A stretch of 64,000 bases of DNA from Ferruginibacter sp. (GCA_965249755.1 CBDFMT010000004.1:3371312-3435311); one strand, 5' to 3'; positions 4,368 through 16,411 are shown, counted from the first letter of the stretch. The notes: a model not told the origin generated them from the sequence alone. Program-made: numbers and translations.

Positions 4368-7300
4368 TTATATGACCTTATCCGGGTTTAAATACCTAAC
4401 ATTTTCTGCAGCTTCCAAACTTCCCCGTTGTTGATTTTGAACTTTATCTTCTAATTCATAATTATCCGGGTCATTCATAAATTTGGCTACTTCACTGGAT
4501 TTGGCCCCGGTAAACCTTCCATTACTGTTCCACCAGTTTACGGCATTGATAACATGCCCTAAATTGGCTTCTGACAACGGATGCCACTCAGTATTGTTGT
4601 AACGGTCTTGAAAATGACCCGGATGCCCGGCAGTGTCATATTTGCCCGTTTTTTTCATCCTTTCTTTGATTTTCTGTCCCGTATCACTTTTTATTTTCGG
4701 GTTGGTGCCCAGGTATAGTTGTCGTTTTGGTGCTGTAGAAGTCTGCGTTGAAATTGCTTTTGATTTTAATCCATCCATAATGTAAGATCTTAAAAAACCG
4801 GTTGGTTTGTTTTTCATATTTCCTGTATTCAAGAGCTCAAAATTTATTAAGTCTTGTCCTGCATTGGGATAGTTTTCAAATTTGGTTATTGTAGCATATT
4901 TGTTAGTGTCCTCAAATTTTAAAAGGTCACCTACTTTCAGATTTGTTTTAGCTAGGTTATTATTGACTGATATTAATGGTAACAGTTCAGACATGTTTTC
5001 AGACAGGTCTTTAAATAATTTATTAAGATCATCAATTTTGGTTGCGTTATACCCCTGTTCGGATTCTACCTGAACTTCACGGATCATGTAACTTATATTT
5101 AAAGCTATTTTTTGGGCGTTTCTATAATTGATTTTGTATTGTGCGTTTTCGTCCTTTTCTATTACCGGCCCTATTTTTTTTAAGACGTCCCTTACAGGGA
5201 GTGCAGTTGTTGCAACCATTAATTCAGCATTCTTTTTGTCACCCTGTAAAAATAAATTGTGTTGGGTATTGTCTTTTGCTTTAAACGTTTTTCTTATACC
5301 TAACCAGTTTGCTACTGCACCAACTACCTTCTTCCCTGCACCCACTACTTTCCCTTTTCCTTTTTCATACATTGCCACACCTTTATTTTTTATCCTCATG
5401 GCAGCTTCAATTGCAGGCTTGGATATGGAATAGGCTTTAGTTAAAACCCAGTCGATAACCTTATGTATTTTGTCTTGTATCCTCAGCATTATACCTTTTA
5501 CTTTTGAGCCAATATCATTGAGGCCAAGTAATGCTGCAAGAAAGCCAATGATGATTGGGATTGATTTTGCAAAAGCCATTTCAACTGCTGCCGCAGCCTT
5601 GTCTACTGCCCCTGAGGCTATCATGGCAACTGCATCCATGATGGAATTTAGCAAGTCGATAATACGGTCTTTCATTCTTACCAGCATCATTATAAACTGG
5701 TAAATGGCCATGCATGCTTTTATAAATGCTGCTACCGGGTTCAACAGGCTTAGTATAAAAGTAAGGGCAGCTTTTATTACCGATTCCTTAATAAAAGTTT
5801 TGATGGCTTCCCACACCATATCTTTAAAATCCGTTAATTTTTCTTTGATCAAGTCCCAAAGGGCACCCAGGCCACCGCTCCTTATCCGTTGAAAAATATT
5901 GGCACCTGCATCTGCAGTTTTTTCGAGCAGCGTTGCCCTGTCTTCGCCGATAAGTACCACGGCCCTTTCACGGATGGCACCATAGCTTAAACCCACCACC
6001 TGCATTACCATTCCCAAAACGGCAGAAACATCAAATTTATCGGGCAATTGTAAATTGGCTATACCCAATTGCGCTGAAAGCCACGCCATCAGGCCATTTT
6101 CGAGGTGTTCACCAATCCGGTTTTTAAACCTTTCAAAACCATGGCTAAAACCTGCGCCCAGGTTATCAAAAAATTTACCGGGGTCCGCAATGATTAAACC
6201 TATCACCGAACTGATACGGGAAAGTATAGTTTGAAAAAGATTGTAGAGGTTCTTAATTACCCTGGCAACCTCTTTTAATAAACCTATCGCTTTATCAACC
6301 AATCCTTTGTTGGCCTGTTTTAATTCGGTAATGCGGTCATCAATTTTCTTAAGGTTGTCTACATATTTTCTGGCAAGGCCATCTACTAACTGGTCTTTTT
6401 TATCATTTACAGTTTGCTCCAGCGAATCAAATTTATCTTGTATGTTTTCGGCAGCTTCTGCACCTACATTTTTTAAAGAGCCCTTAAGGCCACTTACATA
6501 ACCTGCAATTTGTTTTTTGCCATTTTTAATAGCCAGTTTGGCGGAGTTTAAATTGGTGGTAATTACATGTGCCACATGGGTAATTACCTGGTCCATCTGC
6601 TCCAGGTACCGCTGCCGGCCTGCCACATAAAATTTATTTACCCCGCCGGGCATACCAAACAATTTATCTTTGCCCCAGCGGAGCCCTCCCCAAAAACCCG
6701 AATACCGTTTGTGTTTATAGGCAGTCATTTCCCTGTCTACATAGGTTTCAAAATCTATCCTTGCTTTTTCTGATCCGGTGTCGAAAATAGTGTTGGCGAG
6801 CGTTTCGGCATTTGTAAGCAGGTTGGTTACCGTGTCTTCTGTTTTATGGTACATCGCCTGTATTTTCAATATTACTTCTGCCCTCGCATGCTCATCTTTT
6901 TGCCTGGTGGTCTGCTGCTGTTTAACCACACCATCAAAATCTTTTCCCCTGGCAGTAAACATGCCCGTCAACGTTTTTGAAGCTTCTGCCGTTGAAGTTG
7001 CCTGTGCACTTTTAAGTTCCCGGGCCTCATTTCTTCTAAACAATAATGGTTTTTCTTTTGCATCTTTTTGTGCACCTTTTTTTTCGTCCAAAGCATTGGT
7101 AAAAGAAGGTTCATTACTTTTTGCAAGTTGCCCTTCGGTGATATTGCCGGCTTGCATCTCGGTATCAAGCGACTGGCTTTGTGCATCCATCGATATCTCA
7201 GCATTTAACTTTGGCTTTGGTGCAGCATCGTTCGCACCAATGCTTTGTGGCTGGTTGCCTTTTAGCGTTGGTGGCAGGGCTACCGGCTTTTTGTTATCTG

Positions 7301-14800: not shown

Positions 14801-16411
14801 ATCCCCTTTTGACAAACCTTCGATAATAGCAGGCAACTGCGATTTAAGTGTAGCAAAAACCTGGAAAATTATTTTTATTTCACTTTCAGAAAAGCCCAGT
14901 TTTCCAAACAAACCTTTAAAAAGCGATGCCAGGGAATCCTTTATAAAGTTGAGTATGCCACCATTTTTTATTTTGGTGTAAAAAGTATAAATGGCCGTTG
15001 GCAGCAGCAATTTTAATGTTGCATCAAAACCATTTTTAAGCTTGTCTAATAACGATTCTTCTTTAGGGGCATCCCCTGTGCCTTCCGCATCCCGTTGCAC
15101 TAAACCATTTGCCTGGTTTGTTTCGTATTGAATGGCAGCTTCACTTTCATCAGCACGGTAATTTTCGTACGGTGGCCCACGTTCCCTTTGTAATGAGGAT
15201 GCTGCAAGAATAGCTGGAGAAATTTCTTTGGGGCCGACGGCTGCAGTGCCGGCACCTGTAGTTAAAGGTTTTGCGGATAAGCCACTGCAATGGCTGCATG
15301 TACAAATGGCCGGAAAAATTTGCTTGGCGTTTGCTTTTTTATGGATTAAAAACGCCGGGCCGGGTGGCGAGCTGTCTTTATCCTCATGTATATCTTCCTT
15401 TTGCTGCAGTTTTTCTTCCGCAGTTGCACGGCTTATTGCAGGCGCAATTGCAGCCGGTTTAGCTACCGTGCTATTTTGCATTGCAGCCGGGGCTGCGTTT
15501 AAAACTTCAGTTGCTTTTATTTTTACAGCAGCTTGGGTATCTTTTTTTGCACAACAGTTATCGTCTTCTTTGGAATGAATTTTATTTTCCGTTCCGGGAA
15601 GGGAAGAGGTATTTTTCAGGTTCGAAAACTTGCTGGTATTTTGGTGCCGGTTTATTTTTTTACTAGCCCCCTGCTGAATGGTATGAGTAAGTTCATGCGC
15701 CAGCAGCGTGCCACCCCGGGAGGAGGCAGGAGAGTATTTGCCAGCATTAAAATAAATATCATTGCCATGGGCAAATGCCTGTGCATTAATACTGCTGCTT
15801 AGCTGCTGTGCCTCATTGCCGGTATGAATGCGTACACCACTAAAATCAGCACCAAAGCGGCTTTCCATAAATGCTTTGGTATCACCGGGCAATGGGCTGC
15901 CCCTGCCTTTGGACGTTGACAGTGTTTGCTCAAAAGATGCTGTGCCCGCCGGTGGCCCCCTTTCGCCCTGGCGCAAAACAGCCGCTTCTTTTAACGGAAT
16001 ATTTTTGTGGTAATGGTTATTGCCGCCGGGCGCAACTGCTGAAAGTTTAGCCTGCAAATTATCATTGGCTTCACCTTTACAGGCAATGCAATTAATGGCT
16101 GGGGCCTGCAATTTTGCATGTACTTCTTCTTCCTCTTTCCGGTGCAAGGTTTCCTCCTGCACTTGCGGCTGGGCCATTGCCGGGGCTTCCATACGCATTA
16201 CTTTATCTGCCACTGCATCGGCTTCTTTTTCATGCGGATCATCAGGATGGCTAACCGTTAATTTTGCCTGCACAGGCTTGCCAAAAAACGAAGGGTTTTC
16301 TTTAGCACCAAAAAACTGATCTTCCCCGGCCTTTTTAAAAAAGGAGTTACCTGCTGTTTTTAACTGAACAGCGGGTGCGGTTTTAGATGTTTTGTTGGCG
16401 TTTAAAAACAT
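11900..16411 (-). CDS. DUF4157 (eCIS core) cargo protein with C-terminal HNH nuclease
   Basis: 1503 aa; QAKLTVSHPDDPHEKEADAVA, LLAHELTHTIQQ; C-terminal EADHIRDLQWGGQDSYDNLWPLEKSHN (DH...GG.D...NL..L...N HNH signature). Confidence 0.82.
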   Translation of the reverse strand: MFLNANKTSKTAPAVQLKTAGNSFFKKAGEDQFFGAKENPSFFGKPVQAKLTVSHPDDPHEKEADAVADKVMRMEAPAMAQPQVQEETLHRKEEEEVHAKLQAPAINCIACKGEANDNLQAKLSAVAPGGNNHYHKNIPLKEAAVLRQGERGPPAGTASFEQTLSTSKGRGSPLPGDTKAFMESRFGADFSGVRIHTGNEAQQLSSSINAQAFAHGNDIYFNAGKYSPASSRGGTLLAHELTHTIQQGASKKINRHQNTSKFSNLKNTSSLPGTENKIHSKEDDNCCAKKDTQAAVKIKATEVLNAAPAAMQNSTVAKPAAIAPAISRATAEEKLQQKEDIHEDKDSSPPGPAFLIHKKANAKQIFPAICTCSHCSGLSAKPLTTGAGTAAVGPKEISPAILAASSLQRERGPPYENYRADESEAAIQYETNQANGLVQRDAEGTGDAPKEESLLDKLKNGFDATLKLLLPTAIYTFYTKIKNGGILNFIKDSLASLFKGLFGKLGFSESEIKIIFQVFATLKSQLPAIIEGLSKGDCKPLFAALNLLSEVVSAIAGRVWDNLMAELEPVRLWLIDIWNTFGAPVIEEIKAFAGEKWEELKALGKFIWDSFKPIRDKGQEAWDWVVKKLGFGDSDEPGLLGYISGKLTEAWNSIKAELKPVIAPINEVVEGIKALASLGSVKQLQEDAKKWLDEVVKTATAMGSDEDAVASKQVTLRQVLLPALNKSIDRLKAVLKTAAGWVVDKVNFVAGNVTSFISGLQGNKYLAPMYPLIKWMPAAIEKFKDWATDKVTIVFDKLQASAEHLKKFIGPLLTLLEKLVGIAGNLLKNLPDLILGVPFMFMPRCIKDPIIKWLTEVVLKQIPIISEFISFTEKWEDIKKAALTVLKQVFVDGQLGKGLWTFFKTLLGILGIDPKLVTKVVAKAAQNFSDIIAKPGAFLKNIWSVIKGGFSLFWDNIWKHLPKGALDWLFGEVRGATQVAGPKDFSVGSILGFVMGLFGITKENVYKRMSENPRIGPEKVKRIREIESALTGALEWITVWIKEGAEGLLKKIKTQIGDVKDMVIQGVVSWITTKIVAEVTKKLATSTDPLGIGATINIIKQIYDAIKAAVAYVNRILNLVNDAMDNMAEIIAGNTVAASTKFEAILAKAVPVVIGFAVEAVLGPVGVKIKEIVDKVRKKIDDGIDWLINGALNFIGGIIDTGKKVIGAIGGWLGISKSFTDAKKDPHTLYFNKSGTLMIASEPMDVTRYLNNQASANAGNPSMLQTVQNAQQCVQRIDMMKKEIQFKQNMEGNEDAKASKYRMLDAEITKLASLLTILGGTLRPSGKTSNPLDAIPITWHKPLRLYPQAISINNKAYSLFEREKLAVPDVANLNNVRSSSSVASNEILIGVSPSSANVPVIGKVWPRVAAGNLRGGVKQEQFRELLRVSGFVWGSMEADHIRDLQWGGQDSYDNLWPLEKSHNNAANQVLSQDVDYEDSGKNLVTTSLRNTPLNLYFRIKDFT

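Follow-up and report, generated by a model that had tools for sequence, protein, structure and literature searches.

Replacement of C-terminal tips at a WLGI junction in two paralogous DUF4157 proteins, probable cargo toxins of an AlgoCIS-type injection system

Proteins carrying the PVC-metallopeptidase domain (DUF4157) were described in 2012 as polymorphic toxins, combining a constant N-terminus with recombined C-termini (PMC3482391), and a 2021 catalogue lists fusions of DUF4157 to toxins through linkers of more than 1000 aa (PMC8213781). The Tme and 'reconfigurable' Sle1 effectors were characterised in 2024-2026 (PMC11126660, PMC13277306). In AlgoCIS, Cgo1 and Cgo2 consist of a disordered N-terminal domain, DUF4157 and a variable C-terminal domain, fill the tube lumen and require the N-terminal domain for loading (PMC8894135; bioRxiv 10.64898/2026.05.27.728243), with DUF4157 being dispensable for loading (bioRxiv 10.64898/2026.05.27.728243). 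The present analysis concerns a 64-kb stretch of DNA from Ferruginibacter sp. (GCA_965249755.1, CBDFMT010000004.1:3371312-3435311), referred to as the window, with coordinates counted from its first letter, and two proteins encoded on its minus strand, P0001 in cargo gene slot 2 and P0002 in cargo gene slot 1. These proteins are probably paralogous tip-exchanging cargo toxins belonging to a single extracellular contractile injection system (eCIS) of the AlgoCIS type, encoded in a Bacteroidota genome, and their C-terminal tips evolve as cassettes replaced from the WLGI codons of a junction motif to the stop codon.

The locus resembles the PVC/DUF4157 polymorphic toxins in its constant N-terminal zincin, long linkers and variable C-terminal toxins (PMC3482391, PMC8213781), as well as in its linkage to PVC/eCIS genes and in an adjacent immunity gene often being absent. 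PF13699 with HExxH, variable C-termini and eCIS gene linkage are all found here; the polymorphic-toxin concept is already published, P0001 and P0002 are further members of that kind, and nothing here alters the accepted view that PVC/eCIS toxins are polymorphic. Unlike in those papers, a helical carrier of about 760 aa is defined and the crossover is mapped to the WLGI codons by syntenic loci. By description, the likeness extends to Tme and to Sle1/Sle2 of S. lividans, encompassing DUF4157 in the protein or its partner, a helical region that is predicted to contain transmembrane helices and is remotely tape-measure-like (here in relatives of the module), and a variable C-terminal domain, often a nuclease and sometimes followed by an immunity gene; whereas those systems belong to Actinobacteria with an intracellular or membrane-associated CIS, the present one is an AlgoCIS-type eCIS of Bacteroidota with two paralogous carriers in one operon and a separate CIS_TMP gene. 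AlgoCIS shares with this locus the phylum, the operon style, the layout of disordered N-terminus, DUF4157 and variable C-terminus, and a small and a large DUF4157 cargo next to the AAA+ loader, but here three DUF4157 proteins occur, two of them about 1500 aa long with nuclease-like tips. Rhs and CdiA likewise join a constant carrier to a variable toxin at a short boundary motif (PxxxxDPxGL in Rhs, VENN in CdiA), their cassettes being replaced with or without an immunity gene and their incoming tips being AT-rich; by contrast, the present proteins lack YD/Rhs or filamentous haemagglutinin repeats, differ in delivery machine and junction motif, and have no orphan tip cassettes downstream, only 31 bp and 16 bp following the two cargo stop codons. 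The tip exchange is Rhs-like, yet P0001 and P0002 are not Rhs members, as neither has an RHS or YD Pfam match at E <= 0.1. The precise crossover motif, the syntenic proof that both slots exchange tips and share tip families, and how large and how widely spread across phyla the un-modelled carrier family is were not found described in PMC3482391, PMC8213781, PMC11126660 or PMC13277306.

A preliminary description of this DNA had claimed two open reading frames (ORFs) of about 1500 aa, both with an N-terminal motif, a DUF4157 HELTH core and a helical module, and had assigned coordinates to a junction in each. The ORFs lie as placed, the three elements occur in both proteins, and the junction coordinates were right. 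The features of the two proteins are as follows.

4368-9086, minus strand: P0001, slot 2 cargo, 1572 aa, an ORF translating without stops
8871-8948, minus strand: P0001 N-terminal motif, VQAKLQVSSPADPQEKEADAVAGKVM, in the presumed loading sequence
8355-8585, minus strand: P0001 DUF4157/eCIS_core zincin with intact HELTH, residues 168-244 (Pfam)
7974-8195, minus strand: second DUF4157 copy of P0001, degenerate and without HExxH, reading LLANKIAESLQQ
6297-7724, minus strand: P0001 coiled-coil scaffold, residues 455-930, absent from P0002 and conserved across phyla
5307-6296, minus strand: P0001 hydrophobic helical module, residues 931-1260, with 2-3 hydrophobic helices, common to P0002
5199-5306, minus strand: P0001 junction, WLGIRKTFKAKDNTQHNLFLQGDKKNAELMVATTA, with WLGI at residue 1261 (window 5306-5295)
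4368-5313, minus strand: P0001 replaced tip cassette, comprising junction hairpin, helical hairpin, small beta domain and nuclease-like core; AT-rich
4407-4574, minus strand: GH-E-like core of the P0001 tip, with invariant G1510, H1511, E1544 and N1551
11900-16411, minus strand: P0002, slot 1 cargo, 1503 aa, an ORF translating without stops
16193-16270, minus strand: P0002 N-terminal motif, VQAKLTVSHPDDPHEKEADAVADKVM
15665-15895, minus strand: P0002 DUF4157/eCIS_core with intact HELTH (Pfam)
12779-13771, minus strand: P0002 hydrophobic helical module, residues 881-1211
12677-12778, minus strand: P0002 junction, WLGISKSFTDAKKDPHTLYFNKSGTLMIASEP, with WLGI at residue 1212 (window 12778-12767)
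11900-12765, minus strand: P0002 replaced tip cassette
12002-12109, minus strand: HNH-like core of the P0002 tip, EADHIRDLQWGGQDSYDNLWPLEKSHNNAAN, with invariant D1439, H1440, N1454 and N1463

Two syntenic metagenomic contigs, L012 and L014, with identical gene order and 72-79% DNA identity, delimit the replaced segments. Their homology to the window (blastn) ends at 5314/5348 in P0001 and at 12766/12797 in P0002, which are the WLGI codons, and returns at 4327/4338 and 11899/11883, where the next gene lies; the replaced segments are therefore approximately 4368-5313 and 11900-12765, or about 870-950 bp each. In both contigs the slot 1 protein has a carrier 80% identical to that of P0002 and a tip of the GH-E-like family found here on P0001. 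Slot 2 carries a tip without a Pfam match in L012 and an Endonuclea_NS_2 tip in L014 (32.9 bits, above the Pfam cut-off). Sliding-identity comparison of P0001 with P0006, P0007 and P0009 gave 70-95% up to residue ~1230, ~50% at residues 1231-1290 and 12-28% thereafter, a pattern reversed against P0030, and P0002 displayed the same discordance against P0122-P0124 and against P0255. Residue-level alignment places the crossover at WLGI, the sequence being carrier-like up to GKKV.GA...WLGI and tip-relative-like from K.F....H.L.F onward.

Unrelated tails are borne by all 21 of the proteins closest to the P0001 module (52-77% identity), while the P0001 tail occurs on P0030 (67.5% identity in the tail, 53% in the scaffold), on P0035 of Adhaeribacter (module 44%) and on Kribbella proteins (module 39%). 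Tips 65-83% identical are borne by scaffolds only 37-68% identical, and in P0030 and P0255 the tip is better conserved than the scaffold. The P0002 tip is also found on P0256, which has DUF4157 but not the helical module, and, through another linker, on the module proteins P0257 and P0258, the latter from Rhodococcus and without DUF4157. Recombination at WLGI therefore lets one tip family occur on both scaffolds, on others unrelated to them, and in further phyla. Exchange of tips at a definable junction, as proposed in the preliminary description, is thereby upheld by scaffold/tip discordance and by WLGI breakpoints in two syntenic loci.

Base composition changes at the junction as well. GC content drops from 0.42-0.47 in the P0001 scaffold to 0.31-0.34 in its junction and tail, and from 0.43-0.49 to 0.35-0.40 in P0002, accompanied by a decrease in GC at third codon positions (GC3) from 0.42-0.44 to 0.28-0.32. 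Tails overall have GC3 of 0.26-0.34 against 0.40-0.44 for scaffolds, and only 3.6% of 400-bp windows across the 64 kb have GC <= 0.325. The contrast in AT content first noted for the tips is sharper than claimed, with the GC scan falling at the junction itself. Fast divergence of the C-termini under selection beside a constrained scaffold, with no exchange at all, would fit polymorphic-toxin tips, which evolve fast, and the helical hairpin past the junction, which is poorly conserved even between related tips. This explanation is already contradicted by the abruptness of the fall from 70-95% identity to background, breakpoints falling on the WLGI codons in both genes and both relatives, the discontinuous GC and GC3 change, the same tip on unrelated scaffolds and other linkers (P0256-P0258), and tip conservation exceeding that of the scaffold in P0030 and P0255, leaving it with almost no probability.

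For the cargo class to which P0001 and P0002 belong, cassette replacement provides a sequence-level rule, namely that everything beyond the WLGI codons is exchangeable. Recombination between P0001 and P0002 in this genome was considered and rejected, the junction DNA being 53% identical with a longest shared run of 5 nt.

A second linker type, without the WLGI junction and unrelated to it, was observed in P0038, P0045, P0073, P0075, P0105 and P0256-P0258, consisting of a charged helix followed by L..IK..Y.f..L.i....W.i. The HNH-like P0002 tip is found behind both linker types.

BLASTP aligned residues 1-250 of P0001 and P0002 at 49% identity (E 2e-58) and ~440 residues of the helical module at 27% (P0001 897-1339 against P0002 847-1285, E 1e-36), with no alignment over the last ~280 residues. 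The shared scaffold of the preliminary description holds for the first two regions, but residues ~250-900 are unrelated, comprising a second DUF4157 copy and a ~470-aa coiled-coil in P0001 and a different helical region in P0002. The shared N-terminal motif reads VQAKLxVSxPxDPxEKEADAVA, and its P.D..E.EAD pattern occurs in 89 of 146 DUF4157 relatives against 0 of 88 relatives without DUF4157; the low-complexity region at this end is presumed to be the loading region. The eCIS_core domain (PF13699, formerly DUF4157) scores 140.2 bits in P0001 and 106.4 bits in P0002 against a cut-off of 22. The second P0001 copy scores 46.7 bits and is 34% identical to the domain of P0002, which has one copy. 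Kyte-Doolittle averages over 19-residue windows reach 1.7-2.1 at P0001 residues 1020-1038, 1104-1136 and 1171-1193 and at P0002 residues 1144-1167. The junction that follows conforms to the pattern WLGI-K-F ... H-L-F ... LM-AS-P.

The carrier defined by these modules belongs to a large family. A two-module profile retrieved 4,862 representatives at 50% identity among 1.84 billion proteins, 3,157 of them at E <= 1e-30. A scan of species-representative genomes with a two-sequence module profile gave nothing significant, and a scan with a 16-sequence alignment gave more than 483 module loci, distributed over Actinomycetota, Cyanobacteria, Chloroflexota, Acidobacteriota, Myxococcota and Bacteroidota, and also Nitrososphaera and Methanosarcinales. 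An eCIS AAA, sheath or tube gene lies within 6 kb in at least 28 of 48 fully flanked loci by a crude BLAST search. DUF4157 is present in 62% of 231 sampled full-length members, and the junction in 72% of members with DUF4157 against 28% of those without. The junction is kept in 141 of 254 sampled proteins, and the tails of 140 junction-bearing proteins fall into 22 families, the largest being Endonuclea_NS_2 with 90 members. Recognised tips in the family encompass Endonuclea_NS_2, EndoU, Ntox15, deaminases and WHH/AHH-type HNH domains, and 7 of the 10 minority tip families sampled have no Pfam match. The junction thus precedes at least 22 tail families, and homologues do not always carry the same C-terminus, as the profile and tip catalogue suggested in the preliminary description make evident. 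A hidden Markov model (HMM) of carrier plus junction would recognise eCIS cargo lacking DUF4157 and would harvest hundreds of uncharacterised toxin domains.

Full-protein searches of Pfam, NCBIfam and PHROGs found no model covering the helical module of P0001 and P0002, and a PDB profile search with the full scaffold alignment gave nothing significant. The modules of relatives match PHROG tape-measure families (P0258 residues 619-885 at 8e-7, P0047 at 1e-8), suggesting that the helical module is remotely related to phage tape-measure proteins. The sites delimited here offer a place to probe what DUF4157 and the tape-measure-like region do.

Three proteins of the family, P0003, P0004 and P0005 (~2640 aa), are tandem double-cargo fusions with two complete units in one ORF, in which DUF4157, carrier, junction and an Endonuclea_NS_2 tip are followed by a second complete copy. 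The position of the internal DUF4157 right behind a toxin tip would be compatible with a releasing-peptidase role.

By motif, both tips are probable His-Me finger nucleases, and the labels 'GH-E' and 'HNH' are plausible, though below statistical significance. When the tips were used by themselves as queries, word-based searches for homologues recovered just 2 and 4 relatives. The P0001 tip family has the invariant pattern GH...NYE.E...N and the P0002 tip the invariant pattern DH...N..WP...N, each with relatives in Bacteroidota and Actinomycetota. Two genuine GH-E domains from Bacteroidota genomes display the same MGH ... NP.NY.E...N arrangement as the P0001 tip, and the weak Pfam GH-E matches of this tip family fall exactly on the invariant residues; the window's own tip was not among the hits of a six-frame genome search with PF14410. 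The AlphaFold2 (AF2) model of the P0001 tail, with a predicted local distance difference test score (pLDDT) of 67.5, is dominated by a helical hairpin and a small beta barrel and has an alpha/beta end. In the AF2 model of the P0002 tail (pLDDT 81.3), D1439-H1440, N1454 and N1463 lie on a strand-strand-helix (beta-beta-alpha) arrangement. Its weak Foldseek list includes an Rhs endonuclease toxin and Cas8-HNH, the weak HNH matches being 9t38, 8ydb and 8z0k, and a 49%-identical Rhodococcus tip bears the NCBI name 'HNH endonuclease signature motif containing protein'.

Several results weigh against the reading of P0001 and P0002 as tip-exchanging cargo toxins with nuclease tips, and their place in the particle is a prediction. 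The paralogues have no long identical DNA run at the junction, and intragenomic exchange is not evident. Neither P0001 nor P0002 itself has a PHROG tape-measure match. No immunity gene adjoins either tip in the window, an absence that is unusual for antibacterial nucleases. In 3 of 7 relatives of the P0001 tip, the Pfam GH-E model (PF14410) scores 14.1-14.3 bits (E 0.047-0.077), short of its cut-off of 25, and hhalign against the two genuine GH-E domains aligns the 22-column NP.NY.E...N motif only, at 8.5% probability. Pfam HNH (PF01844) gives 11.9 bits against a cut-off of 21.4 (E 0.26) for the P0002 tip, and neither tip has a significant match by PDB profile search or by Foldseek against PDB.

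The nuclease assignments of the preliminary description are retained for their invariant motif residues, with all Pfam, fold and PDB comparisons being sub-threshold. It is very unlikely, in our estimate, that the tips are binding or adaptor domains or toxins of other chemistry, the GH..E and DH..N..N strings being coincidental: such an account would agree with every family, PDB and fold comparison lying below threshold and with the moderate quality of the P0001-tail model (pLDDT 67.5), but the candidate catalytic residues are invariant from Bacteroidota to Actinomycetota, the weak Pfam matches land exactly on them, the sole nuclease-related Foldseek matches, though weak, are to an Rhs endonuclease toxin and Cas8-HNH, the 49%-identical tip carries its HNH name, and recognisable tips at this position are mostly nucleases across the family.

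The missing immunity gene agrees with many PVC-type toxins, which lack one (PMC3482391, PMC8213781). In L014, a SUKH-1/SMI1_KNR4 gene (15336-15959, 26.4 bits, above the cut-off) lies 11 bp after the Endonuclea_NS_2 tip and is absent from the window and from L012; an immunity gene sometimes accompanies the tip cassette. The candidates considered for this role were rejected: the 154-aa ORF that follows the Adhaeribacter orthologue encodes the N-terminus of the small DUF4157 protein, a His-rich 80-aa ORF after P0255 has no window counterpart, the Amidase_2/lipoprotein pair is conserved whatever the tip, and a 97-aa AT-rich ORF (2600-2893) without conservation in the syntenic loci looks spurious.

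The proteins might alternatively be tape-measure-derived lumen or membrane components whose nuclease acts on the producer's own DNA, as in Tme, which could mean extracellular DNA (eDNA) release or programmed lysis of the producer and no target killing; both the self-directed role and this consequence are judged unlikely. The absence of an immunity gene beside either tip, the amidase/lipoprotein pair within the locus and the relation of the module to tape-measure proteins point in this direction, as does Tme of Streptomyces davawensis, which has the same architecture of DUF4157, TMP-like region and nuclease, the nuclease driving eDNA release and sporulation (PMC11126660). Against it, the operon has a separate CIS_TMP gene, and the locus belongs with AlgoCIS, whose particles are released outside the cell and eject DUF4157 proteins as cargo (PMC8894135); moreover, the pairing of tip and SUKH immunity gene in L014 suggests a weapon, and rapid tip turnover suits conflict more than housekeeping.

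If P0001 and P0002 are cargo toxins, the AAA+ ATPase would, as in AlgoCIS, thread them into the tube lumen by the N-terminal region, contraction would eject them into the target cell, and the tip, judging from its motifs, would act there on nucleic acid. More speculatively, the hydrophobic tape-measure-like carrier might help the tip across the target membrane, and DUF4157 or the junction might be involved in tip release. That the WLGI junction and beta-hairpin constitute a universal processing or docking element of eCIS cargo, beyond a recombination landmark, is conceivable but doubtful; if so, the junction would be the site of tip release by the cis-encoded DUF4157 zincin or the membrane-inserted carrier, and carrier plus junction would form a portable 'delivery chassis' for thousands of toxins in bacteria and archaea.

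Pfam searches of the window ORFs identified positions 3-18551 as a single minus-strand, AlgoCIS-like eCIS operon in the order Pvc16_N cap, 484-aa gene, P0002, 409-aa DUF4157 gene, AAA+, P0001, Amidase_2/lipoprotein, sheath and tubes. The genes accompanying P0001 and P0002 are as follows.

17850-18551, minus strand: Pvc16_N cap/terminator gene, opening the operon
16457-17911, minus strand: conserved 484-aa protein, function unassigned, between cap and slot 1
10654-11883, minus strand: third DUF4157 protein, small, 409 aa, with K/E-rich N-terminus and Cys-rich C-terminus
9258-10607, minus strand: AAA+ ATPase, a cargo loader of Afp15/Alg15-like type, located between slots 1 and 2
2994-4336, plus strand: Amidase_2 and lipoprotein pair, inverted inside the operon
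861-2399, minus strand: sheath (Pfam)
403-834 and 3-287, minus strand: two tube genes (gp19), the operon running past the left window edge

The pair of DUF4157 proteins initially described is present, but the 409-aa protein adds a third to the locus. It is a candidate Cgo1-like cargo, its N-terminus lacking the QAKL...EKEAD motif and its C-terminal domain being Cys-rich, and its gene is kept in L001, L012 and L014; in the Adhaeribacter assembly, the small DUF4157 gene is broken into three called ORFs. The CIS_TMP gene (PF19268, an 823-aa frame) lies ~12 kb further left on the same strand. The genome (4.85 Mb) contains only two helical-module copies and three DUF4157 proteins, with no orphan tip cassettes or extra copies found elsewhere in it. 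Within the genus, just one genome out of 24 has the helical module, and the locus is therefore accessory.

The Amidase_2/lipoprotein pair occupies the same place in L012 and L014 and might serve for release or lysis. The Adhaeribacter amidase is found upstream of the cap gene, adjoining a 339-aa membrane protein. The 484-aa protein is 47% identical to its Adhaeribacter orthologue, which has a faint CBM_5_12 match and no other family match.

Elsewhere in the window, a type IX secretion system (T9SS) sorting domain, indicative of Bacteroidota, and a 652-aa ORF without a Pfam match (36931-38889, plus strand) were observed. Upstream of the eCIS operon, positions 18622-26642 on the minus strand encode a Ser/Thr kinase, an FHA protein, a SEDS-PBP fusion (1384 aa) and a PP2C phosphatase, and this block, lying directly upstream on the same strand, may represent a regulatory link to the eCIS.

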